From IMG/VR virus record IMGVR_UViG_3300043580_000025: a stretch of DNA of 59,139 nucleotides; one strand, 5' to 3'. The notes under the pieces were generated by a model. The model did no database searches. It was not told the DNA's origin and worked only from the letters and a program-made list of their open reading frames with translations. Made by a program: the position numbers and the translations under genes. This document shows, one piece after another, positions 2,427 through 54,032 of the stretch. The DNA comes from a virus. The stretch's first letter is position 1, and each line of letters starts with the position of its first letter.

Positions 2427-2429
2427 CGC

Positions 2430-2645: not shown

Positions 2646-2654
2646 GTGATCTCC

Positions 2655-27716: not shown

Positions 27717-28517
27717 CTAGCGCGATGCCCCCACCGCCTGCTGAGCGCGGTATTGGGTTATGCGTGCCTCGGGCGGGAGTTTTGAAAGATCGGGACCGCC
27801 TTTGGCAGCGCCGTTGGTGCCCATTGCACCGGAACCCTGTGCCCTCGGCCAGAGGTGTGGCGCGTTCTCGCGCAGCGATGCAGCCCACTCCTCGGGTGTG
27901 AGTGGCGTCTTGCCATCCTTCCCGAAGACAACGGTATCGCCGTTCATAGCGATCACGTTGCCATCGTCGTCGATGGTCCAGCCCGCGCCCTTAGCGCGCA
28001 GCACGATGTCCTCAGTTGCTTCAGGCAGCGCTCCTGCCTTCTGCGATGCCTTGATGATTGATTCGGCCATTGCGCGTTCGGCCAGCTTGTCGGCCTTCGC
28101 TTTCAGCTTGTCGGCCCGCGCGGTTTCCGCCTTGACCTTCTTGTCCCAATCCGCAGCCATACGTTCGGTGCGCTTATTGAGCACCTCGTCTAGCTTGCCT
28201 TGCTTGATCAGGCCCGCCTCTTCATCGTCCACAAACCTCTTGAGGATGGTGCGAACGGCTTCAGGATCGATGCCTTCGAACTGCGCGAGGTTGGCCTTGA
28301 GTTCTTTCTCCTTGCCAATCAACTCGCCGTTCTTTGCCTTCAGCCCTGCGACCTGCTCATTGACAGCCGCCTCGATCATGCCTTGCACGACGGGCTTCAG
28401 GTTCTCGGGAATTGCCGGTGGGGCTGGGGGCGGTGGAGGTGGTGGAGCGCCGCCGCCGCCTGGAGGATCAGGATCGGGTGCGCGGTATTTCATCATGACA
28501 TTTCGCGTCAGGTACAT
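27717..28517 (-). CDS. scaffolding protein
   Basis: 266 aa, poly-Pro then Ala/Lys/Glu coiled-coil, immediately upstream of the capsid gene. Confidence 0.75.
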   Translation of the reverse strand: MYLTRNVMMKYRAPDPDPPGGGGAPPPPPPPAPPAIPENLKPVVQGMIEAAVNEQVAGLKAKNGELIGKEKELKANLAQFEGIDPEAVRTILKRFVDDEEAGLIKQGKLDEVLNKRTERMAADWDKKVKAETARADKLKAKADKLAERAMAESIIKASQKAGALPEATEDIVLRAKGAGWTIDDDGNVIAMNGDTVVFGKDGKTPLTPEEWAASLRENAPHLWPRAQGSGAMGTNGAAKGGPDLSKLPPEARITQYRAQQAVGASR

Positions 28518-28520
28518 GCT

Positions 28521-28835
28521 TCAATTCCCCTTGGGAGTTGGATCGGATGCGATGGATTCCATGTCCCAGATCATCGCGGTGGTAATGCCGCCCATCAGGC
28601 AATCGAAGCAGACGCAGGCGTAGATGACCGTGCCGCCAGTTGGCCCGCGCCTGCCCTGGATAGCGCCGTTCACGACGCGGGCGTAGGTCTGGGAGCCGCA
28701 GCGTTTGCATCGCAACAGCCCCCGACGTAACGGCCGTGCCTTGGCCCGCAGCAGCACCGCCAGCTTAGGAGGAGGTGCAGCCGATGCGATGAGTGTTAAG
28801 CCGGACATAAGCAAACCACGGACACGGTACGCCAT
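28521..28835 (-). CDS. small zinc-ribbon protein
   Basis: 104 aa with CKRC ... CVCFDC; first minus-strand ORF after the island. Confidence 0.55.
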   Translation of the reverse strand: MAYRVRGLLMSGLTLIASAAPPPKLAVLLRAKARPLRRGLLRCKRCGSQTYARVVNGAIQGRRGPTGGTVIYACVCFDCLMGGITTAMIWDMESIASDPTPKGN

Positions 28836-28898
28836 GTCCGGCGCAAAACCAAGGCATATTTGCTAACACATTGTTGCTAGCTGGGCAATAGCCAAATC

Positions 28899-28923
28899 AA
28901 TCCCCACTAATTTAGTCGGGATT
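28899..28923. promoter_or_regulatory. 25-bp near-perfect palindrome in divergent control region (operator candidate)
   Basis: AATCCCCACTAA-T-TTAGTCGGGATT, 11/12 arm matches. Confidence 0.5.
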
Positions 28924-28936
28924 ATGGCTGGCCCTA

Positions 28937-28966
28937 TTGCGTTACGCTTTAACGGCGTGCTATAGT
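28937..28966 (+). promoter_or_regulatory. sigma70-type promoter, island cassette (33-nt class)
   Basis: TTGCGT-N18-TGcTATAGT; 33 nt from -10 to ATG 29000. Confidence 0.6.
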
Positions 28967-28999
28967 TGGGCCATCGCAACCCCAAACAGAAAGCACGAA

Positions 29000-29566
29000 A
29001 TGAACGCCAACCACACATTCACCCGAGTCCGCGTGATCGAAGACGAAGCCGCTTACGAAGCCGCCATCAAGCGCCGGATCAAGAACGCCTCGCAAGACAA
29101 GTTCTTCCGCGAGAACACCGACGCCCAGGAAGTCCTCGACTGCCTGCGCCAAGCGTCCAACTGGTCCGAGTTTGCAAAATCCCTGATGGCTTCCTACGAA
29201 GAGCGCGGAACGCTAAGCCCTGCCCAATTGAACGCAGGTCGCAGCATGCTTGCCAAGCAGAAAGAAAAAGCAGCCGCGAAGGTCGCAGCCCGCAACGCAC
29301 CGGCAACCTCTGGACGCCACCTGAGCACAATCGGCCAGCGCGAGACCTTTACGCTGACGATCAATAAGCTGATGGAAATGGAAGGCATGTACGGCACCTC
29401 CTACCTGCATATTTGCGCCGACGCCAACGGCAACTCGGTGGTGTACAAAGGCACTTCGGAGCTTGGCAAGCAAGGCGAGACGGTAACGGTCAAGGCAACG
29501 ATCAAAGAGCACACTGCTTACAACGGCGTTGCCCAGACGACGATCAACCGCCCCAAAGTGCTGTAA
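29000..29566 (+). CDS. hypothetical protein (188 aa)
   Basis: ATG 6 nt after CAGAAAGC box; the track's 21-codon upstream extension is the promoter/leader. Confidence 0.8.
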   Translation: MNANHTFTRVRVIEDEAAYEAAIKRRIKNASQDKFFRENTDAQEVLDCLRQASNWSEFAKSLMASYEERGTLSPAQLNAGRSMLAKQKEKAAAKVAARNAPATSGRHLSTIGQRETFTLTINKLMEMEGMYGTSYLHICADANGNSVVYKGTSELGKQGETVTVKATIKEHTAYNGVAQTTINRPKVL

Positions 29567-29574
29567 AGCAGGCA

Positions 29575-29604
29575 AAGCCCGACCAAGCAGGTCGGGTTTA
29601 TTTA
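29575..29604 (+). terminator. rho-independent terminator
   Basis: CCCGAC-7nt-GTCGGG stem followed by TTTATTT. Confidence 0.65.
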
Positions 29605-29611
29605 GCCCCTA

Positions 29612-29641
29612 TTGCGTTACGCTTTAACCGCACGCTATAAT
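29612..29641 (+). promoter_or_regulatory. sigma70-type promoter, island cassette (33-nt class)
   Basis: TTGCGT-N18-TATAAT; 22 nt upstream block identical to 28932..28953. Confidence 0.6.
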
Positions 29642-29674
29642 TGCGCCATCGACACCCCAAACAGAAAGCAGCAA

Positions 29675-29890
29675 ATGACCTCCAAGCCCACCGCCGCCGC
29701 AGCCTACGCGATGCACGTCGCTAACATCGAAGCCCAGATCGCCACCTTGCAAGCCAAGCTCGCCAAGCACAAAACCACGCCGGTCAAGCCCGGTTCCGAC
29801 AGCTTCGCCTCCTGGGGCAAAGTAGGCGACCTCGCGCACGTCAGCGAAACCCTGACCGAGATCAACGAATTCTTCGGCAGCGCACTGTGA
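29675..29890 (+). CDS. hypothetical protein (71 aa)
   Basis: ATG 6 nt after CAGAAAGC. Confidence 0.7.
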   Translation: MTSKPTAAAAYAMHVANIEAQIATLQAKLAKHKTTPVKPGSDSFASWGKVGDLAHVSETLTEINEFFGSAL

Positions 29891-30084
29891 AAATTAACCC
29901 CCCACTCATGGCCGTCGATTACACCCTGAACGAATTGCGCGCACGCCTGCCAGCGCTGCGCGAGCAAAGGGAAAACCCCAGCGTCGCATCAAGCTACAAT
30001 CGCTTGGTCGGAAAAATCGACGCGCTGGAAGCGGTTAAACGCTTACTGGAAACCGGTTCCTACTTTGAACTGCGACTACTCTGA
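29887..30084 (+). CDS. hypothetical protein (65 aa)
   Basis: GTG start overlapping upstream stop (GTGA). Confidence 0.5.
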   Translation: MKINPPLMAVDYTLNELRARLPALREQRENPSVASSYNRLVGKIDALEAVKRLLETGSYFELRLL

Positions 30085-30094
30085 AAGGCAAAGC

Positions 30095-30289
30095 ATGAAG
30101 CAACGCGACAAGGAAAACACGGTGGACGAGATGGTCGTCTACTTTAATAGGCACCCCAACATCCGCACGGCAACTCGGACGCTAAGCGTACAGAACGTCG
30201 AAGACCTGGAGGAACTTGGCTTTCGAGTTAGGCCAGTGCGCGGTGAATCTGGCGTGTACCGCCGTTGTTTAATTGAGCGACGCGATTGA
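30095..30289 (+). CDS. hypothetical protein (64 aa)
   Basis: ATG 6 nt after TGAAAGG, in which TGA is the upstream stop. Confidence 0.6.
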   Translation: MKQRDKENTVDEMVVYFNRHPNIRTATRTLSVQNVEDLEELGFRVRPVRGESGVYRRCLIERRD

Positions 30290-30298
30290 TGGTATAAT
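30290..30298 (+). promoter_or_regulatory. extended -10 promoter, island cassette (26-nt class)
   Basis: TGgTATAAT; 26 nt to ATG 30325. Confidence 0.55.
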
Positions 30299-30324
30299 TG
30301 CGGCACACCAACAGAAAGCACAGA

Positions 30325-30513
30325 ATGAAGATCAGCAAGCAAGACCTCACGATGACCCTGGGCACCGCCGCCGACATGGTCGCACGCGCGGACAAATTTG
30401 AGCCGCACCAATTGGCAAGGGCGCGTGTTGTGGTCGCCTACTGGGCTGCGCTGCGCGCCAAGCAAGCTCGCACAAAAGCAACAAAAGCCGCAAAGACTTG
30501 CGTGACGCGATAA
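30325..30513 (+). CDS. hypothetical protein (62 aa)
   Basis: ATG 6 nt after CAGAAAGC. Confidence 0.65.
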   Translation: MKISKQDLTMTLGTAADMVARADKFEPHQLARARVVVAYWAALRAKQARTKATKAAKTCVTR

Positions 30514-30527
30514 CGCGATGCTATAAT
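30498..30527 (+). promoter_or_regulatory. sigma70-type promoter, island cassette (33-nt class)
   Basis: TTGCGT-N18-TGcTATAAT; overlaps the last codons of 30325..30513. Confidence 0.6.
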
Positions 30528-30560
30528 TGCCACATCGCAACCCCAAACAGAAAGCACCAA

Positions 30561-30821
30561 ATGACCAAAGTCAAAGCCCACCTCCTGAGCATCGCCCTGA
30601 TCAAAGGCAACCTGAAGCTGGCCGCGCACCTCGCCATGCTGGCATCCATTGAATACGGCAACACGGTCAACCTCGACAACGCCTACGCAAAGGTCAAGGA
30701 CGCGATTACGCCGAAGCAATGGTCGGGATACCTGGGCGCATTGGCAAAGGATGGTGTGTATGCACCTTGCACCGACCCGGACTTCGCTGGCTTCTACGGC
30801 ACCTTGACCACATACGCCTAA
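30561..30821 (+). CDS. hypothetical protein (86 aa)
   Basis: ATG 6 nt after CAGAAAGC. Confidence 0.7.
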   Translation: MTKVKAHLLSIALIKGNLKLAAHLAMLASIEYGNTVNLDNAYAKVKDAITPKQWSGYLGALAKDGVYAPCTDPDFAGFYGTLTTYA

Positions 30822-30827
30822 AGCAAA

Positions 30828-30845
30828 ACAGCCCGCAAGGGCTGT
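30828..30845 (+). other. GNRA-tetraloop hairpin abutting the next promoter
   Basis: ACAGCCC-GCAA-GGGCTGT; no T-tract; 3' arm supplies the TG of the next extended -10. Confidence 0.5.
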
Positions 30846-30853
30846 GCTACAAT
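30845..30853 (+). promoter_or_regulatory. extended -10 promoter, island cassette (26-nt class)
   Basis: TGcTACAAT; 26 nt to ATG 30880. Confidence 0.55.
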
Positions 30854-30879
30854 ACCTGCACACCAACAGAAAGCACAGA

Positions 30880-31089
30880 ATGAAAATCGAAACCGCCGCC
30901 GAAGTCCTCGCAACCGTCAAGGTGCTCGAAGCACGCGCACGCAAAGTGCCGAAGCCAGCGCGCAACGCCTATCACCAGATCGCCAAGCGTCGCATCGCTG
31001 ACGCGCGCCTCTTTGCCGACAAGAACCTGGACCACGCCATTGCTTGCATCCGCGAGGCACGCCACTGCTTGGAACTGATTGTGTACTGA
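30880..31089 (+). CDS. hypothetical protein (69 aa)
   Basis: ATG 6 nt after CAGAAAGC. Confidence 0.65.
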   Translation: MKIETAAEVLATVKVLEARARKVPKPARNAYHQIAKRRIADARLFADKNLDHAIACIREARHCLELIVY

Positions 31090-31098
31090 TGCTATAAT
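31090..31098 (+). promoter_or_regulatory. extended -10 promoter, island cassette (26-nt class)
   Basis: TGcTATAAT; 31093..31120 is identical to 30293..30320. Confidence 0.6.
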
Positions 31099-31124
31099 TG
31101 CGGCACACCAACAGAAAGCAGATA

Positions 31125-31385
31125 ATGACACGCAAGACAACCGAACAAATCGAAGAAGGCCGCTGGATGCGCGGCATCAACCGCGACATCGAGAAGCACG
31201 ACAAGATCAGCAAGCTCGAAGACAAGATCATCGCATCGTGCATCATTGGCACGCTCATGCGCGAAGGCAAGACGGTTCACTACATTAACTTGACGAACCG
31301 CAAAGGCCAATACACCGGCAAGATCAAGACTGGCACGCACGACGCGCTGCTCGACTACCTCATTCGCAACAAATACGTCCGCTGA
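31125..31385 (+). CDS. hypothetical protein (86 aa)
   Basis: ATG 6 nt after CAGAAAGC. Confidence 0.7.
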   Translation: MTRKTTEQIEEGRWMRGINRDIEKHDKISKLEDKIIASCIIGTLMREGKTVHYINLTNRKGQYTGKIKTGTHDALLDYLIRNKYVR

Positions 31386-31387
31386 TC

Positions 31388-31618
31388 ATGAAACACGCAA
31401 AATTCTTCGAAGCCAACCCAAACGCAACCCTGGACTTCTTTGGCAAGTTCACCCGGCAAGAGCTGCAGGCAATGAACGAGCCAGCGTGGAAGGAGCTGCG
31501 CCGCCTGGACAACACCGGCGACAAGCTAGCGTTCCGCGCCTATATGCGGCTGCACGAAGGCCCACGCGGTCTGATCAACTGCATCATGGCCGACCACGAT
31601 CTGCCGAACAGATTTTAA
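31388..31618 (+). CDS. hypothetical protein (76 aa)
   Basis: ATG 2 nt after upstream stop. Confidence 0.6.
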   Translation: MKHAKFFEANPNATLDFFGKFTRQELQAMNEPAWKELRRLDNTGDKLAFRAYMRLHEGPRGLINCIMADHDLPNRF

Positions 31619-31648
31619 TTTCCCAACCACCGCCAAAGAAAGCAAAGC

Positions 31649-32047
31649 ATGACATTCAAACTCTCAGCAGAACAAACAAGGGCGCGCGACGCGCTGGCCG
31701 TACGCCTCGAAGAGGAACGCGCCAAGGTCGACACCGCCGTGACCGACTTCAACGACGCGCTGACCATCGCGCGCAACACGCTGCAAGAAGCGCTCGACGC
31801 CTATAACGGCGTGCTTAGCGAAGCGCGCTTCTTCGCCGCCGACGTTTCCCAGGACTGGGAGAACGACTTCGAAGAGAAGTCCGAGCGTTGGCAGGAAAGC
31901 GAGAAGGGCGAAGGCGTGCGCGAGATGATCGAAGCGTGGCAAAACGTCGACCTCGAAGACCTGGAGATCGACATGCCCGACGCCGAGATCGACCTGAACG
32001 TGGACACGCACGACGAAACGCTGACCAACCTCCCGACCGAAGCGTGA
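31649..32047 (+). CDS. strongly acidic protein (132 aa)
   Basis: ATG 6 nt after AGAAAGC; about 35 D/E versus 12 K/R by manual count. Confidence 0.7.
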   Translation: MTFKLSAEQTRARDALAVRLEEERAKVDTAVTDFNDALTIARNTLQEALDAYNGVLSEARFFAADVSQDWENDFEEKSERWQESEKGEGVREMIEAWQNVDLEDLEIDMPDAEIDLNVDTHDETLTNLPTEA

Positions 32048-32060
32048 CGCGATAACAGGA

Positions 32061-32069
32061 TGCTATAAT
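32061..32069 (+). promoter_or_regulatory. extended -10 promoter, island cassette (33-nt class)
   Basis: TGcTATAAT; 33 nt to ATG 32103. Confidence 0.55.
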
Positions 32070-32102
32070 CGCATCATGCCCACCCGAAACAGAAAGCTAG
32101 AA

Positions 32103-32279
32103 ATGATGACGAACCGACCGCTCACGCTCTGGAGCCGCCGTACCAACGCCGCCGTTGGCAACCATTGGGTCGCTGAGCGCGGCGTGACCGAAGCGACCGC
32201 CCAGGAATGGCTCGCGGTGTTCCGCAAGGACGAGCCGAACGTGATTTTCGTCGCTTGCGCGCACCGGCCGCGCGGCTAA
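32103..32279 (+). CDS. hypothetical protein (58 aa)
   Basis: ATG 6 nt after CAGAAAGC. Confidence 0.6.
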   Translation: MMTNRPLTLWSRRTNAAVGNHWVAERGVTEATAQEWLAVFRKDEPNVIFVACAHRPRG

Positions 32280-32286
32280 AATTAAA

Positions 32287-32311
32287 CACGCCGTTATGGG
32301 ATAACGGCGTG
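32287..32311 (+). other. perfect 11-bp hairpin overlapping the promoter spacer
   Basis: CACGCCGTTAT-GGG-ATAACGGCGTG, immediately followed by CTATAAT. Confidence 0.7.
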
Positions 32312-32318
32312 CTATAAT
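32310..32318 (+). promoter_or_regulatory. extended -10 promoter
   Basis: TGcTATAAT; 36 nt to ATG 32355. Confidence 0.5.
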
Positions 32319-32354
32319 CGAAGCATGCAAACCACCCCCCACCTTGGAGCCCCC

Positions 32355-32609
32355 ATGAAGAAACCCGTAGGCCAGATCGAGTGGCGCGACGAAAGCGGCC
32401 GGAAACACTGGGCCGAGTTCTACTTGGCCGCTGACAACTCCTGGGGCGCGCTGAACGGTTTCCCTTTTGAGATCGAGTTCAACAAAACGGGACAAAAACG
32501 CTTTGCCCAGATTTTGCGGACGGTGGTGCACGTCGCCATCGACGAGGACGAGACCGGCAAGCCCATCACCGACAAATGGACCGTCAAGCGCACCGACTTC
32601 CCTGCCTGA
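32355..32609 (+). CDS. hypothetical protein (84 aa)
   Basis: GGAG 5 nt upstream of ATG 32355. Confidence 0.65.
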   Translation: MKKPVGQIEWRDESGRKHWAEFYLAADNSWGALNGFPFEIEFNKTGQKRFAQILRTVVHVAIDEDETGKPITDKWTVKRTDFPA

Positions 32610-32619
32610 AAGAACACCG

Positions 32620-32865
32620 ATGAACTTCCCTAGCGCTCCCGCAAACAACCCCCTGGACGCTGGCTCGCAAGCCAGCGACAAAACCTTCTTTGGCGAGTTT
32701 GACCGCTACGCCCTCTTTGCGGTCCACACGCGCTTCGACGCGGTCCAATGGTTTGTGGCCGACGCCGAGCTGCCTGACCCAGTGACCGGCAAGCCAAGCA
32801 TTATCCGGCAAGCGGCAACGCCAGAAGAAGCGGTTGCAGGGTTACGCTTTAACGACGTGCTATAA
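32620..32865 (+). CDS. hypothetical protein (81 aa)
   Basis: ATG after TGAAAGA (TGA is the upstream stop); the 3' end encodes the next promoter. Confidence 0.6.
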   Translation: MNFPSAPANNPLDAGSQASDKTFFGEFDRYALFAVHTRFDAVQWFVADAELPDPVTGKPSIIRQAATPEEAVAGLRFNDVL

Positions 32866-32866
32866 T
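32858..32866 (+). promoter_or_regulatory. extended -10 promoter, island cassette (26-nt class)
   Basis: TGcTATAAT preceded by GGTTACGCTTTAAC block; stop TAA of the upstream gene lies inside TATAAT. Confidence 0.55.
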
Positions 32867-32892
32867 CTGGGCACACCAACAGAAAGCCCAGC

Positions 32893-33048
32893 ATGAACAA
32901 GATCAAAGTCACCATCAAATGTCGCGGCCAAGCCGAAGTCACAAAGGTCGTCCACGCCGACGACCTGAGCGCCGCGATGGACATTGTCCAAAACGAGATG
33001 GAAGCCGCTGGGTTTTTTGTTGAATTCCTCAGCGCCAGCTTCGCCTAA
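32893..33048 (+). CDS. hypothetical protein (51 aa; below ORF-track cutoff)
   Basis: Translated manually: MNKIKVTIKCRGQAEV...SASFA; ATG 6 nt after CAGAAAGC and 26 nt after the -10. Confidence 0.6.
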   Translation: MNKIKVTIKCRGQAEVTKVVHADDLSAAMDIVQNEMEAAGFFVEFLSASFA

Positions 33049-33062
33049 GTAGAAAGCAAAAC

Positions 33063-33257
33063 ATGACCGCCAAGCAATACGTTATCCGCGCAACCCAGAT
33101 CAAAGGTCTGGACCTCATCAAGCCCACGAAAGGCAACCCCGGCATCCTTGCCATCGACTACACCCGCAAGGTGGGCGGCGTCCACCCCTGCGTCATCGAC
33201 GCGCGGACCTGGGCCGAAGCACAGACCCAACTCAATAACTACTACATGGTGGGCTGA
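33063..33257 (+). CDS. hypothetical protein (64 aa)
   Basis: ATG 6 nt after TAGAAAGC. Confidence 0.6.
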   Translation: MTAKQYVIRATQIKGLDLIKPTKGNPGILAIDYTRKVGGVHPCVIDARTWAEAQTQLNNYYMVG

Positions 33258-33266
33258 AGCCCTTTT

Positions 33267-33431
33267 ATGAAATACGCTCAAGAACTCCGCGCGCAGGCGC
33301 AAGCACTGCGCATCAAAGCCCGCACGATGATCGTGCTGCACGCATGGCGTCTATTGATTCAGGCCCGCCAGCTTGAAGCCGAAGCCGACGCCATCGAAGC
33401 ACGCATCGCTTTACGCGAGATGGAAGAATGA
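33267..33431 (+). CDS. hypothetical helical protein (54 aa; below ORF-track cutoff)
   Basis: Translated manually: MKYAQELRAQAQ...REMEE; ATGA overlap with the next gene. Confidence 0.5.
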   Translation: MKYAQELRAQAQALRIKARTMIVLHAWRLLIQARQLEAEADAIEARIALREMEE

Positions 33432-33874
33432 CCGCACTAACCATTGCAGAACGCCAATCGCTTTACCGCGCGCGACGCACCTTAGAAGGCAAGACCGAAG
33501 TGCGTGGTATATACTTGCAGCCAGAGCAACACGCAGCGTTGCGCGCAATTGCCCGCACGCAGATTAACCAAACCAACAGAAAGGTACCACTCATGCAACC
33601 CAGCGTCGGCGCTTTGCCGCAAACCAAGAACATGATCTTCGTCCCGGCGCACATGGCGCTTGTCGAGACGGACGCACCCACCATCGCCGTCAAGCTGGGC
33701 GAGAAGGGATATTGGCCGGTGTACCACCCGAGCCATGAAGAGTTGAACGAGCGATATGCAAGCGAAGCGGTGCTTCGATCCGCAGTGCAGGCGTCGATGT
33801 TTGGATGGGATGCACCTATCGCACGCGAAGCAATCGAGTGGCTCGCAGAAGCAGACGATGCGTCGGCCGCGTGA
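33428..33874 (+). CDS. hypothetical protein (148 aa) with possible internal start at 33593
   Basis: In-frame CAGAAAGG box 9 nt before internal ATG 33593. Confidence 0.65.
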   Translation: MTALTIAERQSLYRARRTLEGKTEVRGIYLQPEQHAALRAIARTQINQTNRKVPLMQPSVGALPQTKNMIFVPAHMALVETDAPTIAVKLGEKGYWPVYHPSHEELNERYASEAVLRSAVQASMFGWDAPIAREAIEWLAEADDASAA

Positions 33875-34502
33875 CAATCAGCGCAGCAGGGTCTACGCCT
33901 GGGAGAAGTTCGTCACAAAAACGACGCACTGGACCGGTACCTTCAAGACCCTGGAAGAGTGCCAAAACTACCTAACCCCGATCTGGCGCACGGAGCGCGG
34001 GCGCTATGGGCGCGCTAGGGTTGCCCCACCGCCCATCGAACGGCCCGCCTGGGGCCAGCGTAGCGCCATTGCCCACCATTCCCACCGCATTACCCTGCCG
34101 ACCTGGGCGCGCAATCCGTGGGTCATCCTCCACGAGGCCGCGCACCGGCTGACACCGCGCGATGAAGCGCATGGCCCACGCTTTGTGGGCGTCCTGATGG
34201 GCCTTGCCTGCCGCCACCTGGGATACAACGCCGACGAGCTTATGGCTGCGGCCGATGACATGGGCGTAAATTATCATGTGCGCTCAATAGGCAGCGTGCC
34301 GGTGCTTGCGCCGCGCGGTCCATCGTGGCACGTCGAGCGCGCTGTGCGCGACGAAGGACCGATGACGGAAATGGATATCGCGTGCTGGTGCAATCTAACC
34401 TATTTGCAAGTGCGCGGAGCTGCGCTACATTTGATCAAAACGGGCCGCGCGAGATGGCTGCGTAAGAAATTAGTGCTGCTATCAAACGAAGGTACAACAT
34501 GA
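33858..34502 (+). CDS. HExxH metallohydrolase-like protein (SprT/TIGR04338-like)
   Basis: RVYAWE near N-terminus and ILHEAAH motif; start ATG 33858 rather than track start 33756. Confidence 0.6.
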   Translation: MRRPRDNQRSRVYAWEKFVTKTTHWTGTFKTLEECQNYLTPIWRTERGRYGRARVAPPPIERPAWGQRSAIAHHSHRITLPTWARNPWVILHEAAHRLTPRDEAHGPRFVGVLMGLACRHLGYNADELMAAADDMGVNYHVRSIGSVPVLAPRGPSWHVERAVRDEGPMTEMDIACWCNLTYLQVRGAALHLIKTGRARWLRKKLVLLSNEGTT

Positions 34503-35176
34503 GTCCAGTGGTCATCGGGAACGCAACGCTCTACCTGGGCGATTGCGCTGAGATACTTTTATCCTTGCCAAAGGTCGACGCGGTCATCACCGATCCGCCT
34601 TATGGCATCGGCGCATCGTCCAAGAAGTTTATCAACGGCACCTCGAAATGGAGCAAGGACTACTACGAGGACGTTTGCTGGGACACTGCGCCGCCCGATA
34701 ACATGTTGATCAAACTGGTCGTCGCAATGGGCGAGGTCGCGATCCTCTGGGGCGGCAACTACTTCGACCTCCCGCCTTCGCGCTGCTACCTCGTCTGGGA
34801 TAAAATGATCCGCGACTTCAGCTACGCCGACTGCGAGTTCGCCTGGACGAATCAAGACGCCAACGCTCGCATCAAATCGCTGAGCACCGCCGCTGCAACT
34901 GGCGACGGCCGCGTCCATCCAACGCAAAAACCACTCGAGCTTATGCACTGGTGCATCGCGCAATGCAAAAACAACCCGCAGACCGTGCTCGACCCATTCA
35001 TGGGGTCAGGGACCACCGGCGTTGCTGCTGTACAATTGGGCCGCAGCTTTATTGGGATTGAGCGCCTGCCAAAGTACTTCGACATCGCTTGCGAGCGAAT
35101 CGCGCTGGCCTACGCGCAGCGTCCCCTCTTTGAGCCCGAACCATTTAAACCACCCGTGCAACTGAGGATCGAATGA
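34499..35176 (+). CDS. DNA methyltransferase 1 (beta-class, DPPY; probably m6A)
   Basis: VDAVITDPPYGIG (motif IV), HPTQKP, DPFMGSGTTG (motif I) in beta-class order. Confidence 0.88.
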   Translation: MSPVVIGNATLYLGDCAEILLSLPKVDAVITDPPYGIGASSKKFINGTSKWSKDYYEDVCWDTAPPDNMLIKLVVAMGEVAILWGGNYFDLPPSRCYLVWDKMIRDFSYADCEFAWTNQDANARIKSLSTAAATGDGRVHPTQKPLELMHWCIAQCKNNPQTVLDPFMGSGTTGVAAVQLGRSFIGIERLPKYFDIACERIALAYAQRPLFEPEPFKPPVQLRIE

Positions 35177-35922
35177 ATAGCCCCGTCATCGTCGGAGACG
35201 CAACGCTCTACCTGGGCGATTGCCGCGAGATACTTCCATCGCTGCCAAAGGTCGACGCCGTCATCACCGACCCACCCTACTCGGAGCAGTGCCACACCGG
35301 GCACGACGCTGGCTCGCGCGCTGGCAACGACGGCGCTGTGCGCTCGACACTTGGCTACTCGGCGCTGACCCAGGCCGACGTGCTTGCGCTGGCCGACGCC
35401 TACGTCGCTGCGTCGGTGTCCTGGGTCGTCTGGATGACCGATAGCAACCTCGCCATGCAAGTGCGCGCAGCGTTGGAGCAACGGGGGCTTTGTACATTCT
35501 CGCCGCTGCCGTTCTACCAACCTGGACGCAGCATTCGCCTATCGGGCGACGGGCCGTCAAGCTGGACGGACTGGATCGTCGTCGCACGCACAAAGGCCGC
35601 GCACAAATGGGGCACGCTGCCTGGAGGCTACATCGCTGGGCCTGGATGGAATGATAAGGCACTCATGGGCGGCAAACCAACCGCGCTCATGGACGCACTG
35701 GTCATGGACTACACGCGCCTGGGCGCGACGGTGCTCGACTCGCACATGGGCGCTGGGACGACCGGCATCTCTTGCATGAGGACCGGCCGCAAGTTCATCG
35801 GCTGCGAGATAGACCCTGCGACCTTCGACATCGCCTGCCACCGCATCGAGCAAGCGTACAACCAACGGCCGCTCTTCATGCCCGAGCCGCTGAAGCCGCA
35901 AGAGCAACTCGGACTGATCTAA
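35173..35922 (+). CDS. DNA methyltransferase 2 (beta-class, DPPY, divergent middle)
   Basis: VDAVITDPPYSEQ, GGKPTALM, DSHMGAGTTG. Confidence 0.8.
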   Translation: MNSPVIVGDATLYLGDCREILPSLPKVDAVITDPPYSEQCHTGHDAGSRAGNDGAVRSTLGYSALTQADVLALADAYVAASVSWVVWMTDSNLAMQVRAALEQRGLCTFSPLPFYQPGRSIRLSGDGPSSWTDWIVVARTKAAHKWGTLPGGYIAGPGWNDKALMGGKPTALMDALVMDYTRLGATVLDSHMGAGTTGISCMRTGRKFIGCEIDPATFDIACHRIEQAYNQRPLFMPEPLKPQEQLGLI

Positions 35923-36612
35923 ATGCACAAAGTCATCATCGAGAACGCGACGCTCTACCTGGGCGATTGCCGCGACATCCTGCCGACGCTGGGCAAAGTC
36001 GATGCCGTCATCACCGACCCACCTTATGGCATCAACTACGGGAAGCTGATGAAGGGAAAAGGCGACGGGAACGGCGGCTTAGATCGCAATCGATGGAAGG
36101 ACTACGCTGCGTTCGACTGGGACACTGATCGCCCAAGCCGCGAGGTCTTTGACTTGCTGCGCGACGTCAGCAAGCAGCAGATAATTTGGGGCGGCAACTA
36201 CTTCGCTGATCTTCTCCCGCCATCCATGCAGTGGTTGGTGTGGGATAAGTGCCAAACGTTTTCGCTCGCTGACTTTGAGCTTGCCTGGACGTCGCAGCAG
36301 AAAGCCGCACGCCTCTTCCGGCTATCTCGCCCAGAAGCCCTGCAAGATGGTCGCCAGCACCCGACGCAGAAGCCGATTGCGTTGATGAAATGGTGCATTG
36401 CAATTGTCAGCGACGCACTCGAGATCGTTGATCCATTCATGGGATCAGGGACCACCGGCGTTGCTGCAGTCGAAATGCGCAAAGGCTTCATCGGCATCGA
36501 GCGCGAGCCTGCGTACTTCGATATCGCGTGCAAGCGCATCGCGCACGCCTACAACCAGCCGCCACTCTTTGACGAACCAATGAATCCGCAAGAGCAGATC
36601 GGGCTAATTTAA
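35923..36612 (+). CDS. DNA methyltransferase 3 (beta-class, DPPY)
   Basis: VDAVITDPPYGINYG, HPTQKP, DPFMGSGTTG. Confidence 0.88.
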   Translation: MHKVIIENATLYLGDCRDILPTLGKVDAVITDPPYGINYGKLMKGKGDGNGGLDRNRWKDYAAFDWDTDRPSREVFDLLRDVSKQQIIWGGNYFADLLPPSMQWLVWDKCQTFSLADFELAWTSQQKAARLFRLSRPEALQDGRQHPTQKPIALMKWCIAIVSDALEIVDPFMGSGTTGVAAVEMRKGFIGIEREPAYFDIACKRIAHAYNQPPLFDEPMNPQEQIGLI

Positions 36613-36617
36613 TTGTG

Positions 36618-36626
36618 TGCTACAAT
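36618..36626 (+). promoter_or_regulatory. extended -10 promoter
   Basis: TGcTACAAT; 36 nt to ATG 36663, CAGAAAGG in the leader. Confidence 0.5.
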
Positions 36627-36662
36627 CTGGGCTGGATTTAACGCAAACAGAAAGGCACCAAC

Positions 36663-36902
36663 ATGGCAAAGATTAAGCTCAAGACCTTCAAAGGCATCGT
36701 GGCCGCGCGCCAGAACGCGCTGTACACAATGGCAAACGGCGACAAGGTCTACGCAATGGGCGGCGAGATGGCCGAAGTCGGCGCAGAGATCAAGTACGTC
36801 GCAAGCCCCTCCAGCCGCACGGTACAAATGGGCGGCAGGTCGAACGCCTGGGCCGAGAGCCGCGACGACTACAGCAAAATGTTTTTCAGGCAATACGAAT
36901 GA
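36663..36902 (+). CDS. hypothetical protein (79 aa)
   Basis: ATG after CAGAAAGG box. Confidence 0.65.
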   Translation: MAKIKLKTFKGIVAARQNALYTMANGDKVYAMGGEMAEVGAEIKYVASPSSRTVQMGGRSNAWAESRDDYSKMFFRQYE

Positions 36903-37099
36903 GATTCGTCACCTGCAGCCGCGCGCTGTACCGGGTCACCGAGCGCAACTACCGCCGCCTCATGCTCGCCATCGCGCGCAATGAGGAGGTCGACATCAAT
37001 AAGTTTGGCATCCGCCTGGGCGTCATCGACGCGGATATCACCAAACTCGATCCCTATAGCGGACAACTCGCGCTAGGCACGCCGCCGCGCAAACGCTAA
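36899..37099 (+). CDS. hypothetical protein (66 aa)
   Basis: ATGA overlap with upstream ORF; last gene of the island. Confidence 0.55.
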   Translation: MRFVTCSRALYRVTERNYRRLMLAIARNEEVDINKFGIRLGVIDADITKLDPYSGQLALGTPPRKR

Positions 37100-37302
37100 C
37101 GGCACAGCAGCCGCCTGCGATAGTCCTTCTCGCTTTCGCCAGCGCGCTGCGGTGGCTTCGCATCGGTCCCATTCAGGTGGTCCGGCAGCTGCAGCTTCGA
37201 ACGCTTCGTGCGCACCGGCACCTGCGGCACCGCCTCTTCGAGCTTCTTCAACATCTCGCTGAAGTCGGCCGCGTCTTCAATTGCCCGATTCATCATTTGC
37301 AT
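37096..37302 (-). CDS. hypothetical protein (68 aa)
   Basis: GGAGAG SD; convergent 4-nt overlap with the island end. Confidence 0.55.
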   Translation of the reverse strand: MQMMNRAIEDAADFSEMLKKLEEAVPQVPVRTKRSKLQLPDHLNGTDAKPPQRAGESEKDYRRRLLCR

Positions 37303-37311
37303 CTTGCTCTC

Positions 37312-37452
37312 CTATATGCTGCGCGATACCAAGAGCGACGCCATCCAGCACGCAAGGCCCGCCGCCATGAGATTCAGACGACCCGCTGTAACACCGACAG
37401 CCGCCAAGATAAACAGCACCAACGCTGCGATTAAAAATGCCATACCAATCAT
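37312..37452 (-). CDS. small two-helix membrane protein (46 aa; below ORF-track cutoff)
   Basis: Translated manually: MIGMAFLIAALVLFILAAVGVTAGRLNLMAAGLACWMASLLVSRSI; AAGGTG upstream. Confidence 0.5.
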   Translation of the reverse strand: MIGMAFLIAALVLFILAAVGVTAGRLNLMAAGLACWMASLLVSRSI

Positions 37453-37462
37453 GATTCACCTT

Positions 37463-38581
37463 TCACAATCCCGCCCTCTTGAAAGCGTCGGCGTTGCGCT
37501 TGCGCAGCACGTCGAGGTTGATATCCTCGCCGCTTGCGTTGCGCATATCCTCCAGCGATAGGTTGCCCTCAGAGAACAACTTAGCGCGCGTGTCGCCTAG
37601 CACCTGCCGCTGCCTCGCTGGCGTCTGGTCAGCGAGCCATTCTTCGTAGGTCGTCTTCGCGGGCACTTGCCCGTCCATCGCTGAGCGCGTGCCTGGATCA
37701 AAGTCCTCCCACTCGCCAACGTCACCCGTCGCACCAAGTTCCTTCCACGACTTAGTGAGCTGCACGTACGTCGACCTGCATTGCCAATGCAGCCGCCCAG
37801 GTCCAGCCCCCCACGGAAATTCATGGTCGATAGGTTTGTGATCGAGCGTGTACGTCTTGCCGTCACGCATCTGACATTGGGGCGTCGTCCGATTGTCCAG
37901 CGTCGACAACCATTGCAACCCCTTCAGGATATCCTCATTGGCTTCGGTCACCATATCCTTCGCAAAGTGCGCCGTGTGCGATAGCGCCGTGCGCACAACC
38001 GCCGCCGCTTCCCGCCGCGTGATCTCCAGCGCGCCGTCGCGATACTTGTTCTCGCGCGTCCCGCGCAGGTCGCGCACGATCTGATCGGTCGTCCTATTTT
38101 GCACGTAGCCATCGGCAATCGTGCGCCGGATTAACCGCGCCTTGCTTGCCTCTTGGTCCTTGAGGAACTCGGACAGCAACGCACCTTGGAATGGCCGCGA
38201 CATCGCACCGGCGTAGGCTTGCGTCACGCTGACGCGCGCGATGTCGAAGGATGGCGGCATATTGCGCGCGAGCATCCCCTCTTGGAATTGAAGCTCCAGC
38301 GCCGTCAAGCCCCTGATCTCTTCGCGCAACGTGCTATCGACCTCGGCGTACATGGTGTGGTTTAGATCGCGCACGCTCTCTAGCATAACCTCGAGCCGCT
38401 TGATCGTAAAACGCTCCGGGTCCATCGTCTCGAGCTTTGTGATTAGCTCAGTGAATAGCGCCGCGTCCGCGCGATTCAAGATCGTTATTATGCGACGCAC
38501 CACGTTGTTGGAATAGGCGCGCAGATTCACGGCGTGATCGATCTGCGCATCTCGCAACGCGACGTTGACGGATTCGGCCAC
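37463..38581 (-). CDS. head morphogenesis protein (Mu F / SPP1 gp7-like)
   Basis: NRTTPQCQMRDGKTY motif, position after portal; GTG start. Confidence 0.8.
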   Translation of the reverse strand: MAESVNVALRDAQIDHAVNLRAYSNNVVRRIITILNRADAALFTELITKLETMDPERFTIKRLEVMLESVRDLNHTMYAEVDSTLREEIRGLTALELQFQEGMLARNMPPSFDIARVSVTQAYAGAMSRPFQGALLSEFLKDQEASKARLIRRTIADGYVQNRTTDQIVRDLRGTRENKYRDGALEITRREAAAVVRTALSHTAHFAKDMVTEANEDILKGLQWLSTLDNRTTPQCQMRDGKTYTLDHKPIDHEFPWGAGPGRLHWQCRSTYVQLTKSWKELGATGDVGEWEDFDPGTRSAMDGQVPAKTTYEEWLADQTPARQRQVLGDTRAKLFSEGNLSLEDMRNASGEDINLDVLRKRNADAFKRAGL

Positions 38582-45497: not shown

Positions 45498-45525
45498 TTG
45501 ACACAGCGGCAAATTATGCTACAGT
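45498..45525 (+). promoter_or_regulatory. rightward early promoter
   Basis: TTGACA-N16-(TGc)TACAGT; 30 nt to ATG 45556. Confidence 0.6.
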
Positions 45526-45555
45526 CCGGCCACCCGCAAACCAGAAAGGTCAGAA

Positions 45556-47929: not shown

Positions 47930-47984
47930 CGTCCGATTATCCTCTACAATACTCAATCTTTCACCCCTAGAAAGGGAGCCAATC

Positions 47985-53975: not shown

Positions 53976-54000
53976 CCCGTCAGTGCCCGTGCGGCTGGGC

Positions 54001-54006
54001 TATAAT
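54001..54006 (+). promoter_or_regulatory. -10 box of a cassette of the 26-nt class
   Basis: TATAAT, 26 nt to ATG 54033, leader CCAACAGAAAG as in the island. Confidence 0.45.
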
Positions 54007-54032
54007 CAAAGCCCCCAACAGAAAGTTTCCTC

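Follow-up and report, generated by a model that had tools for sequence, protein, structure and literature searches.

Predicted PeSL-like promoter and terminator cassettes in a small-gene island of a siphovirus-like phage

What are the near-identical sequences that precede one small gene after another in this phage, and do they serve transcription, gene exchange or both? The window, the whole stretch of 59,139 nucleotides analysed here, represents a tailed phage of approximately 59 kb that encodes a tape-measure protein, portal, terminase, DNA polymerase, primase and helicase. The 19 larger proteins scanned did not include an RNA polymerase. The region of interest is an island of 23 genes, g1 to g23, with products mostly of 51-188 aa and without family assignment, and homologues were found in relatives only for g1, g5, g7, g8, g10, g12, g15, g17, g18 and g23. 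The right flank of the island consists of convergent - strand genes, and the terminase-portal-head operon runs leftward from 45.4 to 37.5 kb and is presumably transcribed late. At least 16 related uncultured phage contigs of 70-82% identity, forming a non-T4, siphovirus-like clade, carry the same cassettes in fuller form. The best explanation, to which as a whole we assign a probability of roughly 0.7, is that the small genes of the island form a hyperplastic block, which copies of a composite cassette divide into about ten short transcription units, and that these copies constitute a PeSL-like promoter/terminator system in this clade.

Extended -10 elements and leaders in the window

The window contains the motif TGNTAYART ten times, on the + strand in every case, whereas 2.16 ± 1.32 matches were expected (none of 100 shuffles reached ten). 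The TG starts are at 28958, 30290, 30519, 30845, 31090, 32061, 32310, 32858, 36618 and 45517, and nine of the ten copies fall within the island at 28.9-36.7 kb. A preliminary description had listed at least ten extended -10 elements in the island; nine were recovered, all on the + strand, whereas that at 29636 is preceded by CG instead of TG (CGCTATAAT) and is a plain -10. The tenth match, at 45517, lies outside the island, has a perfect TTGACA at 45498 and was absent from that description. The features are as follows.

29000..37099, + strand: island, g1-g23
34499-36612, + strand: three tandem N6/N4 DNA methyltransferases of 225-249 aa, within the island
28932..28999, + strand: cassette 1, before g1 (ATG 29000, 188 aa); -35-like TTGCGT 28937-28942, core GTTACGCTTTAAC 28941-28953, TG 28958-28959, -10 TATAGT 28961-28966, then a 33-nt segment (CATCGCAACCCCAAACAGAAAG...) to the ATG; nhmmer E = 2e-13 with a relatives-only profile
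29577..29605, + strand: canonical intrinsic terminator after g1, GCCCGACC-AAGCA-GGTCGGG then TTTATTT; fold -19.3 kcal/mol
29607..29674, + strand: cassette 2, before g2-g4 (ATG 29675), a near-duplicate of cassette 1; -10 TATAAT 29636-29641, 33 nt to ATG
30287..30324, + strand: cassette 3, leader type A, before g5 (ATG 30325); -10 30293-30298, 26 nt to ATG; the g4 stop codon TGA adjoins TGGTATAAT
30498..30560, + strand: cassette 4, before g6 (ATG 30561); TTGCGT 30498, core variant GTGACGCGATAAC 30502-30514, TGCTATAAT with -10 30522-30527, 33 nt to ATG
30826..30879, + strand: cassette 5, leader type A, before g7 (ATG 30880); hairpin ACAGCCC-GCAA-GGGCTGT 30828-30845 (z = -3.4) ending in the TG of TGCTACAAT, -10 30848-30853, 26 nt to ATG
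31087..31124, + strand: cassette 6, leader type A, before g8-g10 (ATG 31125); -10 31093-31098 in TGCTATAAT, which the g7 stop codon TGA adjoins; 28 nt identical to cassette 3
32042..32102, + strand: cassette 7, before g11 (ATG 32103); GTGACGCGATAAC 32044-32056, TGCTATAAT with -10 32064-32069, 33 nt to ATG
32285..32354, + strand: cassette 8, before g12-g13 (ATG 32355); perfect hairpin CACGCCGTTAT-GGG-ATAACGGCGTG at ~32287-32311 (z = -3.9), TG 32310-32311, -10 32313-32318; leader of a distinct type, 36 nt, with a GGAG ribosome site
32838..32892, + strand: cassette 9, leader type A, before g14-g21 (ATG 32893); GTTACGCTTTAAC 32841-32853, TGCTATAAT with -10 32861-32866, the g13 stop codon inside the hexamer, 26 nt to ATG; E = 5e-13
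36618..36662, + strand: cassette 10, a divergent copy (E = 0.02) before g22-g23 (ATG 36663); TGCTACAAT with -10 36621-36626, then a 36-nt segment ending in ACAGAAAGG
45498..45555, + strand: predicted promoter outside the island, at the start of the rightward replication arm; TTGACA 45498, 16-nt spacer, TGCTACAGT (-10 45520-45525), then 30 nt with CCAGAAAGG to ATG 45556
53998..54032, + strand: type-A-like cassette outside the island (E = 0.008); GGGCTATAAT, -10 54001-54006 without TG, then a 26-nt segment (CAAAGCCCCCAACAGAAAG...) to ATG 54033

Cassette 1, g1 and the terminator at 29577..29605 make up a complete predicted promoter-gene-terminator unit, and the canonical terminator is followed by the next predicted promoter. 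Each cassette was previously thought to drive one to three tiny ORFs, which holds for nine of ten; the cassette with its -10 at 32861 precedes eight genes, including the three methyltransferases. Profiles built from the relatives only recovered the window sites at 28939, 29613, 30282, 30498, 30842, 31081, 32041, 32289 and 32831, all on the + strand (E = 1e-5 to 1e-13); the hits at 36602 and 53998 were marginal.

Measured from the end of the -10, the ATG lies at exactly 26 nt for the genes starting at 30325, 30880, 31125, 32893 and 54033 and at exactly 33 nt for those at 29000, 29675, 30561 and 32103, in agreement with the preliminary description; the remaining gaps are 36 nt (ATG 36663), 30 nt (ATG 45556) and 36 nt (32313 to ATG 32355). 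The 'two rigid length classes' drawn from these distances proved to be two homologous leader types and no spacing rule, the range across the clade being 23-39 nt (type A 23-30 nt, mostly 26; types B, C and D 27-39 nt). The 26-nt class is leader type A, and the 33-nt class is a window-specific variant of the g1-type leader, common to g1, g2 and g6, with a more diverged copy before g11. Base-by-base checking bore out the reported identity of 30293-30320 with 31093-31120 (28 nt) and of 28932-28953 with 29607-29628 (22 nt), as well as the presence of ATCGCAACCCCAAACAGAAAGCAC, the exact 24-nt block, at both 28973 and 30534. In a repeat search of the window the copies fell into a 74-nt family of four and a 54-nt family of four.

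Cassette anatomy in related phages

The full cassette observed in the relatives comprises, 5' to 3', an A-rich tract containing a stop codon, a hairpin, TATAAT or TATACT, a leader, GAAAG and the ATG. The upstream gene's stop codon falls inside the A-rich tract (TAAAAATAAAT), which is positioned where the UP element of a promoter would be; A+T makes up 81% of the 12 nt 5' of the stem, compared to a genome G+C content of 58%, and a stop-codon triplet (TAA, TAG or TGA, in any frame) occurs within those 12 nt in 30 of 32 cases. The clade hairpin, GCACCGTTA-CNNRA-TAACGGTGC, has 9-11 bp with the conserved core CGTTA-CNNRA-TAACG, and its 3' arm ends in TGC, therefore supplying the TG of the extended -10. 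Approximately five variable bases separate the -10 from a conserved CA, the predicted transcription start. The leader that follows belongs to one of three or four C/A-rich types (A, CACACCAAC; B, CATCGCAACGAATT..; C, CTTCAGCAACCC..; D, CATCAGCAACCC...), and the cassette closes with the ribosome site (C)AGAAAG, 5-7 nt ahead of the ATG.

Cassettes occur on the coding strand only, just upstream of ORFs without known function. Among 109 distinct cassettes T1, A2 and T6 of the hexamer are invariant and positions 3-5 vary (TATAAT 58, TATACT 42, TACAAT 6), with TG ahead of the hexamer in 74; as had been proposed, the elements thus resemble real sigma70-type promoters. The hairpin and A-rich tract, obvious in the relatives and eroded in the window, did not feature in the preliminary description.

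What the sequences show is the anatomy of the cassettes, their conservation, covariation and recombination joints; that the elements are active as promoters, terminate transcription, work early and rely on the host polymerase is our inference. Host sigma70 RNA polymerase would start at each cassette without a good -35, producing 5' leaders of ~20 nt for type A and ~27 nt for type B/D. The hairpin, which lies at the preceding unit's 3' end, would most likely act there as an attenuator or terminator, or as a 3'-end stabiliser, the AT-rich -10 providing a weak hybrid behind it. The conserved blocks, hairpin plus -10 at one flank and GAAAG(A/C)NNNNNATG at the opposite one, recur as direct repeats every 0.2-1 kb and are therefore also short homologies, at which cassettes may exchange patches and promoter-plus-gene units may be deleted, duplicated or re-ordered.

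The hairpin and its possible roles

A strong stem is present in 64 of 97 cassettes, 30 of these 64 ending exactly at the -10, and representative folds gave z = -3.4 to -5.0. With the stem in register 85% of cells are paired, against 30-51% with the register slid. Covariation was observed at the four outer pairs, where 29 cells changed on both sides compared to 14.6 in shuffles (0 of 500 as high); invariance of the core in this test is by construction, because the selection pattern required it. Interior non-Watson-Crick pairs read on the + strand comprise eight G.U and one A.C (p = 0.04; ~6-7 independent events), an excess that favours an RNA structure of the + strand. In the window only two of ten cassettes have a significant hairpin (30828-30845 and ~32287-32311), the remainder being mostly eroded. 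TTGCGT, a -35-like hexamer, replaces the hairpin in three window cassettes, and cassette 3 lacks it because the upstream DNA is coding. The -10 is retained without a hairpin at 30293, 31093, 32064 and 36621 and is therefore not merely the tail of a terminator. On the + strand the hairpin is followed by UAUAAU or UAUACU, with 3-4 U in 8 nt and no canonical U-tract, so that at most a weak termination would be expected in this direction.

On the - strand the A-tract places AUUUAUUUUUA after the hairpin, which then has the shape of a canonical terminator. The structure might accordingly stop leftward late transcription from the terminase-portal-head operon running antisense through the island, and a terminator scan scored 32313-32285 and 30845-30828 as terminator-like on that strand; the convergent - strand genes on the right side of the island fit this proposal. 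We nevertheless regard it as unlikely, since the wobble pairs, G.U on the + strand, turn into A.C mismatches when read on the - strand (8 vs 1), the - strand U-run often starts 3-5 nt past the stem, and one terminator at the boundary would suffice, leaving no obvious need for a copy in every intergenic gap. The A-tract is equally well explained by the stop codon and the UP-element position, as in PeSLs. The palindrome could instead be a binding site, with core (C)GTTAC-N3-R-TAAC(G) centred near -26, for a dimeric phage or host DNA-binding protein; such a putative protein would switch all island promoters together, off or on, and hairpin potential would be a by-product of two-fold symmetry. GTTA-N5-TAAC occurs four times in the window, in island cassettes only, against 0.15 expected, and, counting two GTGACGCGATAAC variants, all six window cassettes that carry it have it at a distance of exactly 7 nt from the -10. 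The core persists in 43 distinct contexts even where the outer stem is broken or lost; this and the fixed distance give a hint that a specific sequence, and not structure alone, is recognised, and the C-N-N-R-A loop pattern and half-site centres ~9 bp apart, roughly one helical turn, fit such a site. A protein site, however, needs none of the compensatory changes seen in the outer stem (GCACCG/CGGTGC, CGCCG/CGGCG, ACCCG/CGGGT, TCGACCG/CGGTCGA), and the 8:1 bias of G.U over A.C argues for RNA. The position is also taken by unrelated hairpin sequences, at 30828-30845 in the window and as AAGAAGAAGGGC... in contig L012; core invariance is built into the covariation test. The island proteins scanned and the conserved neighbour g0m yielded no DNA-binding domain. 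An operator role is therefore improbable in our estimation, although it is compatible with the cassettes being promoters.

Recombination among cassettes and comparison with PeSLs

The proposal that cassettes serve as recombining homology linkers held in part. From genome to genome the leader type varies for 14 of 24 gene families, in which the coding sequence, and often the upstream module too, stays orthologous; family 9 retains an orthologous coding sequence and orthologous 34 nt upstream, the swap being confined to the 20-27 nt from the -10 to GAAAG. Several gene-order joints were observed inside a cassette. Downstream of gene family 37, one and the same hairpin and -10 module leads into three different leader-plus-gene modules (families 38, 40 and 41); the order of units 38, 40 and 41 differs between genomes, and the islands measure between 2.4 and 12 kb. 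All four window cassettes that have an orthologous gene are closer to a paralogous window cassette (0.70-0.85) than to the cassette of the orthologue (0.61-0.73), and TATACT occurs in 0 of 11 window cassettes vs 45 of 114 elsewhere (p = 0.007). These patterns indicate that cassettes recombine with one another. The expectation that gene content changes at cassette boundaries was not borne out: comparison of the relatives revealed no enrichment of order breaks at cassette junctions (55 broken and 57 kept, vs 39 and 31 at cassette-free junctions, p = 0.45; p = 0.14 in a second comparison).

Since both kinds of junction break equally often, the similarity might merely reflect strong promoters and leaders that were duplicated occasionally and kept by selection, recombination being incidental and not driving gene turnover. 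Because a viable rearrangement can only lie between genes, joints close to cassettes are expected in any case. Other mechanisms are evident in homing-endonuclease insertions, one of an HNH endonuclease among them, and in an illegitimate deletion that left a leader fused to a gene's last 17 nt; cassettes plainly did not mediate these events. We consider this account rather doubtful, given joints inside cassettes, in which an upstream module continues through TATA or TATACTCTAGGC before different leader-plus-gene modules, the short leader patches exchanged between orthologous contexts in those 14 families, and hairpins with an internally duplicated ATAAC arm (L009 7520, L006 5409) that look like crossover scars. 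A more active process, in which the hairpins are sites for a dedicated enzyme, integron-attC-like or an HNH endonuclease target, and promoter-plus-gene units move site-specifically, appears very improbable. Hairpin cores with GTTA and TAAC are reminiscent of integron core sites, single-gene units permute freely, and in contig L030 HNH_3/AP2 endonuclease ORFs occupy precisely the gap from a stop codon to the following cassette. However, attC sites have the order ..AAC...GTT.. over 57-141 nt, whereas the clade hairpin has the reverse, GTTA...TAAC, in 23 nt; the clearest joints are at the -10 and leader and not within the hairpin, which is wholly absent from many cassettes, and the proteins scanned included no integrase or recombinase.

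The preferred reading, a promoter/terminator cassette that also recombines, has a precedent in the PeSLs of T4-type phages, for which promoter and terminator function and recombination have been shown experimentally (PMC2839356, PMC4122927). PeSLs comprise an AT-rich tract, a promoter, a stem-loop between the -35 and -10 or overlapping the -10, a ribosome site and an ATG, and precede ORFans in hyperplastic regions (PMC2839356, PMC4122927). The cassettes of the present clade have the same architecture and a predicted promoter and terminator action. This kind of cassette is therefore already known from T4-type phages; what is new is its predicted occurrence in a non-T4, siphovirus-like clade.

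Genome context and the island

Judged by anatomy, conservation and analogy, from which their function too is inferred, the ten promoter/leader copies (cassettes 1-10) ahead of genes of the island appear to be a further example of the promoter-early stem-loop (PeSL), a cassette known from T4-type phages. The window phage is siphovirus-like and not a T4-type myovirus; the element is of the same kind but belongs to another lineage. The principal features are:

28-999, plus strand: C-terminal 323 aa of a DNA polymerase, opening the window
28521-28835, minus strand: 104-aa gene with zinc-ribbon-like CxxC...CxC...C spacing
29000-37099, plus strand: island of 23 genes (g1-g23)
33428-33874, plus strand: gene g17
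34499-36612, plus strand: three tandem paralogous N6/N4 DNA methyltransferase genes (225, 249 and 229 aa)

The window, a tailed-phage genome of 59,139 bp with about 58% G+C, carries genes for a tape-measure protein, a minor tail protein, portal, large terminase and primase on the minus strand, and for a helicase, an HNH protein, an endonuclease VII-like protein and, at the left end, the C-terminal part of the DNA polymerase on the plus strand. The N-terminal part of the polymerase is probably at the right end, a split that points to a contig which is complete and circularly permuted. Among the window proteins scanned there was no RNA polymerase, integrase or repressor, and no T4-like core genes were seen in the window. 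The portal is 46% identical to those of the Pseudomonas siphoviruses Medea1 and phiAH14a. Medea1 was dropped as an informative relative, being a temperate lambdoid phage with only the head module in common.

The island lies between two minus-strand structural blocks, divergent on its left from the 104-aa gene and convergent on its right with a 372-aa head gene. The region 28836-37465 interrupts the structural block: the portal and the 372-aa head gene flank it at one end, and the rest of the head and tail genes lie beyond the opposite end. Related uncultured phages were represented by 28 loci from IMG/VR, obtained by scanning for proteins like that of the adjacent head gene and for a DNA pattern, and by six further loci of 82% identity or less from a metagenome scan with g18, which yielded no very close relative. 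Genes shared with these relatives are 70-82% identical. The two flanking genes are constant, but the island between them measures from 2.4 kb (contig L005) to 12.1 kb (L023), with varying gene content. Among 50,697 isolate phage genomes, DNA searches for near and for distant matches brought up nothing related to the island beyond generic methyltransferase similarity, and no isolate phage matched the window as a whole in DNA sequence. No Pfam family besides methyltransferases was detected in the island proteins scanned.

The 104-aa gene adjoins the first island promoter divergently. Its product lacks a Pfam family, is 61-77% identical in all relatives and is a candidate regulator; nothing ties it to the cassettes. 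Within the methyltransferase trio, stops and starts overlap or abut, and repeats of 101-143 nt are common to the genes at 70-82% identity. No homologues were found in the related contigs by tblastn, and the block is therefore specific to the lineage of the window. Gene g17 contains a leader-like CCAACAGAAAGG at 33567-33595, followed by an in-frame ATG at 33593. Its C-terminal 93 aa form a separate ORF in L023, and tblastn divides g17 into two segments in every relative, so that g17 may represent two fused genes or contain an internal start.

Anatomy of the cassettes

The pattern TGNTAYART occurs ten times in the window, always on the plus strand, against 2.16 copies expected, and no shuffle reached ten. 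Nine copies lie in the island; the remaining TGn site, at 45517, is accompanied by a perfect TTGACA -35. The TG, at -15/-14 and one base 5' of the -10 hexamer, is present in nine of the ten island cassettes and in 74 of 109 clade-wide; the exception in the island is the -10 at 29636, CGCTATAAT. Ten of about 16 promoter-like sites in the window fall within the 8-kb island. A repeat search grouped the copies into a 74-nt family (28939, 29614, 30500 and 32042) and a 54-nt family (30290, 30845, 31090 and 32858). Distances from -10 to ATG of 26 and 33 nt had been reported in the preliminary description and proved exact, the outlying ATG at 54033 included, as did identical blocks of 28, 22 (and 24) nt. 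Profiles built from the relatives alone recovered exactly the window sites that it had picked out. The cassettes are a real feature and had been well described, and the interpretation given was largely right, except that a hairpin and A-tract module, plain in the relatives, was overlooked. That each cassette drives one to three tiny ORFs holds for nine of ten; at 32861 eight genes follow, including the methyltransferase trio.

Cassettes were collected as a hexamer with at most one mismatch from TATAAT, followed by GAAAG, 3-9 nt and the ATG of an ORF of at least 35 aa. This gave 97 and later 109 distinct cassettes, in all of which the presence of GAAAG and ATG is a requirement of the search pattern. 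From 5' to 3', a cassette consists of a stop codon in an A-rich tract, a hairpin of the form GCACCGTTA-CNNRA-TAACGGTGC, TATAAT or TATACT, five variable bases, a conserved CA, the leader, GAAAG, 5-7 nt and the ATG. In the 12 nt 5' of the stem, A+T makes up 81%, and a stop-codon triplet, frame not considered, is present in 30 of 32 cases. In the window the A-tract is weak, appearing only at 32273-32286 and 30818-30827.

The hexamer is best explained as a sigma70-type extended -10 promoter, an inference from its sequence. Positions 1, 2 and 6 (T1, A2, T6) are invariant in the 109 cassettes while positions 3-5 vary (TATAAT 58, TATACT 42, TACAAT 6), and it is positions 1, 2 and 6 that are fixed, and 3-5 that are variable, in the conservation profile of the sigma70 -10 element. 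The hexamer is also kept where the hairpin is absent (30293, 31093, 32064 and 36621). At 28937, 29612 and 30498 an eroded hairpin coincides with a -35-like TTGCGT with an 18-nt spacer, and relatives have TTGCAC at 19 nt, but the -35 is weak or absent overall. Together with the TGn, this indicates an extended -10 promoter that lacks the full consensus. A consensus promoter scan, with a single full -35/-10 promoter in the island, misses promoters of this type. A hairpin promoter of the N4 type, for a virion RNA polymerase, was considered and rejected, since the proteins scanned included no RNA polymerase and the hexamer resembles a sigma70 -10. Outside the island, in the replication arm, the promoter-like hexamers TACAAT, CATAAT, TAGAAT and TATAAT, all lacking the TG, were observed at 47945, 48344, 56108 and 56805 (plus strand), 29-37 nt 5' of plus-strand ATGs that AGAAAGG precedes; at 56108 the hexamer is followed, within the leader, by a GGGGCTTCGGCCCC hairpin.

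The ribosome site at the 3' end of the cassette is AGAAAG/GAAAG and not the canonical GGAG. It would pair with a 16S rRNA 3' tail ending CUUUCU, if the host has one. AGAAAG occurs 39 times on the plus strand of the whole window versus 14 times on the minus strand; it was seen ahead of most plus-strand starts, those at 45.5-57 kb included, and GGAG sites at some minus-strand structural genes, e.g. 40466 and 3259.

Four homologous classes of leader were distinguished between the -10 and GAAAG/ATG:

Type A: ..CACACCAACAGAAAG; mostly 26 nt, range 23-30 nt
Type B: TCGTCATCGCAACGAATT..GAAAG; 31-39 nt
Type C: CTAGGCTTCAGCAACCC..; 27-37 nt
Type D (that of g1): CATCAGCAACCC..; 33-38 nt

In the window, the 26-nt class corresponds to type A and the 33-nt class to a variant near the g1 type (CATCGCAACCCCAAACAGAAAG), which is specific to the window, present ahead of g1, g2 and g6, and degraded at g11. 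Since the two lengths correspond to homologous leader types, their exactness reflects recent common descent, not a spacing rule; the proposal of two rigid length classes does not extend to the clade, where lengths vary. A scan of genome contigs with the type-A pattern returned 29 single, chance-like matches in unrelated taxa, with no prophage and no clue to the host.

Strong stems were found in 64 of 97 cassettes, and 30 of the 64 end exactly at the hexamer. Because TGC closes the 3' arm of the hairpin, the stem includes the TG of the extended -10. Representative hairpins fold with z = -3.4 to -5.0. Only two of the ten window cassettes have significant hairpins, at 30828-30845 (z = -3.4) and about 32287-32311 (z = -3.9). 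Across 43 distinct contexts the four outer pairs covary, with 29 cells changed on both sides against 14.6 after shuffling (0 of 500 shuffles as high), and 85% of cells are paired in the proper register against 30-51% when it is slid. The invariance of the inner GTTA/TAAC is uninformative because it is fixed by the selection pattern. Rfam covariance models gave no match at E <= 1 to either strand of 28500-37500.

The hairpin might act in the RNA, at the 3' end of the preceding unit, or as a DNA site. Among interior non-Watson-Crick pairs under symmetric scoring, eight G.U were counted versus one A.C on the plus strand (p = 0.04, from about 6-7 independent events), a bias which mildly favours plus-strand RNA structure. 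Canonical terminators do occupy the same slot after g1 (29577-29605) and in L012 and L018. Against a simple terminator, the GTTAC-type hairpin is followed by UAUAAU with no U-run, and it is on the minus strand that the A-tract reads as a U-tract. GTTA-N5-TAAC occurs four times in the window against 0.15 expected, exclusively in island cassettes and, together with two GTGAC variants, always 7 nt from the -10; given this restriction and fixed distance, the core may serve as a protein-binding site.

A more far-reaching alternative is that the hairpin core and the leader boxes (CACACCAAC, CATCGCAAC, CTTCAGCAAC) are recognition elements for dedicated phage factors and not just remnants of shared ancestry, or that the cassettes are mobilised as circles. 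Such a factor could, for example, be an RNA- or DNA-binding protein timing the shut-off or antitermination of 10-20 early units together, and leader type could then set a temporal or translational class. Mobilisation as circles would amount to an integron-like gene-cassette system in a lytic siphovirus. Either is considered improbable, and the reading as a PeSL-type element is preferred.

Recombination and gene turnover

The preliminary description proposed that the repeated blocks act as homology linkers for the exchange of small genes. Sequence comparison among relatives shows that the cassettes do recombine. Leader type differs between genomes in 14 of the 24 downstream gene families with at least two distinct cassettes. 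For family 9, represented in four genomes, the upstream 34 nt and the coding sequence are orthologous, and the intervening 20-27 nt between -10 and GAAAG belong to type A in three of them and to type B in the fourth. For family 8, one upstream module is joined to leader B or leader C. Downstream of family 37, L023 and L034 are alike through the hairpin and TATA and then continue with family 38 and family 40, respectively, while L031 and L033 are alike through TATACTCTAGGC before family 38 and family 41. The order of these single-gene units (38, 40 and 41) varies among genomes. The four window cassettes ahead of a gene with an orthologue are each closer to a paralogous cassette in the window (0.70-0.85) than to the cassette of the orthologue (0.61-0.73), and TATACT is found in none of 11 window cassettes versus 45 of 114 elsewhere (p = 0.007). 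The three-part mosaic of A-tract and hairpin, -10, leader, and ribosome site with ATG offers exceptionally clean instances of recombination joints just 6-15 nt long.

In two hairpins, in L009 at 7520 and L006 at 5409, the ATAAC arm is internally duplicated (GCACCGTTACGCGATAAC and then C(G/T)CG(C/A)ATAACGGTGC), and they look like crossover scars. In L030, at about 8650-8730, the final 17 nt of a deleted family-41 gene are fused to a complete cassette (hairpin, TATAAT and type-A leader), which likewise resembles a rearrangement scar.

Cassette-specific gene turnover, the other part of the proposal, does not emerge from counts of order breaks. For adjacent gene pairs with both families present in a second genome, 55 cassette junctions were broken and 57 kept, against 39 and 31 for cassette-free junctions (p = 0.45); a looser test gave p = 0.14, both with crude ORF calls, regular-expression cassette calls and limited power. 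Individual joints do coincide with cassettes. Right-hand joints fall at the cassette edge in two pairs of close relatives. Among pairs that are 97-98% identical, one replacement ends at the 5' edge of a cassette. In another, a free-standing HNH_3/AP2 homing endonuclease gene (HNH_3 E = 1.5e-9, AP2 weak) at 2282-2764 (plus strand) in L030 takes the place of a 78-aa ORF found in L029 (98.5% identical); it fits exactly into the gap from a stop codon to the next promoter's GTGC-TATACT. A second HNH-like ORF, recognised by its resemblance to the first, was noted in L030 after family 37 at about 7855-8330 (plus strand), again exactly between the stop codon and the next cassette.

Comparison with known systems

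Morons of lambdoid phages, described by Juhala, Hendrix and their colleagues, are reportedly units of promoter, gene and terminator inserted between genes. The island units are likewise autonomous, with their own sigma70-type promoter (and, for g1, a canonical terminator) and with accessory genes that differ from one relative to another. Morons occur as isolated insertions in the late operons of temperate phages, are expressed from the prophage and have no common repeated cassette, whereas the island has at least ten tandem units with homologous regulatory sequences, in a window with replication genes and no integrase or repressor among the proteins scanned. The attC sites of integrons are long imperfect palindromes with RYYYAAC...GTTRRRY ends and an adjacent integrase. 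They were rejected as a model because the order here is GTTA...TAAC, the element is 23 nt long and the proteins scanned included no integrase.

A looser analogue than PeSLs is the start-associated sequence (SAS) of Cluster K mycobacteriophages, a 13-bp motif with AGGAG and a proposed function in translation (Pope et al. 2011, PMC3203893). Like the cassettes, it is a conserved, one-orientation repeat a few nt 5' of the ATG of non-structural genes of various families, with an imperfect inverted repeat (ESAS) just upstream in about half of the copies (PMC3203893). It differs in lacking a promoter hexamer, in the 17-bp length of the ESAS inverted repeats and in that no recombination role has been shown for SAS/ESAS. 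In the literature searched, the sole mention of PeSL-like motifs outside T4-like phages concerns the haloarchaeal myovirus HGTV-1, described as having a stretch that resembles a TATA box, together with an inverted repeat, before most left-arm ORFs (PMC3950731). By that description, a promoter element and inverted repeat again precede many small ORFs and a role in genome shuffling was proposed (PMC3950731), but the promoter is of archaeal type and the virus unrelated.

PeSLs consist of an AT-rich tract with an upstream stop codon, a sigma70 promoter, a ribosome site and ATG (PMC2839356, PMC4122927), with a stem-loop containing G-T pairs that lies between -35 and -10 or overlaps the -10 (Arbiol et al. 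2010, PMC2839356; Comeau et al. 2014, PMC4122927). They cluster densely where ORFans form hyperplastic regions, act as promoter and terminator in lacZ fusions and recombine into mini-circles (PMC2839356, PMC4122927). The present cassettes share the composite order of stop codon and AT tract, promoter and stem-loop, ribosome site and ATG; the dense, tandem, same-strand arrangement among small ORFans in a hyperplastic region; and the lineage-specific sequence flavours and degraded or half copies. A possible further parallel is the presence of copies at indel and replacement joints; here some joints lie in cassettes, with no enrichment of order breaks.

If the PeSL reading is confirmed, such cassettes are not peculiar to T4-like myoviruses but would have arisen also in an unrelated, uncultured siphovirus-like clade. 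A second origin would argue for a general solution to the insulated expression of many small accessory genes and to their shuffling without loss of expression. The cassette is also a compact natural design, its hairpin supplying the TG of an extended -10 promoter, and its profile serves well to locate start codons and early-gene islands in metagenomic contigs of this clade.

PeSLs belong to T4-type myoviruses and their activity and mini-circles have been demonstrated, while the present cassettes, known from sequence, belong to an unrelated clade with genomes of about 59 kb and 58% G+C. They have an extended -10 (TGn), with the TG from the 3' arm of the hairpin, in place of a consensus -35; a hairpin core of CGTTA-CNNRA-TAACG instead of stems of G-runs and C-runs; discrete leader types that reassort independently of upstream module and gene; and AGAAAG where PeSLs have GGAG. 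What sets the present case apart is the lineage, the hairpin-supplied TG, the conserved core, the reassorting leader types and the AGAAAG site.
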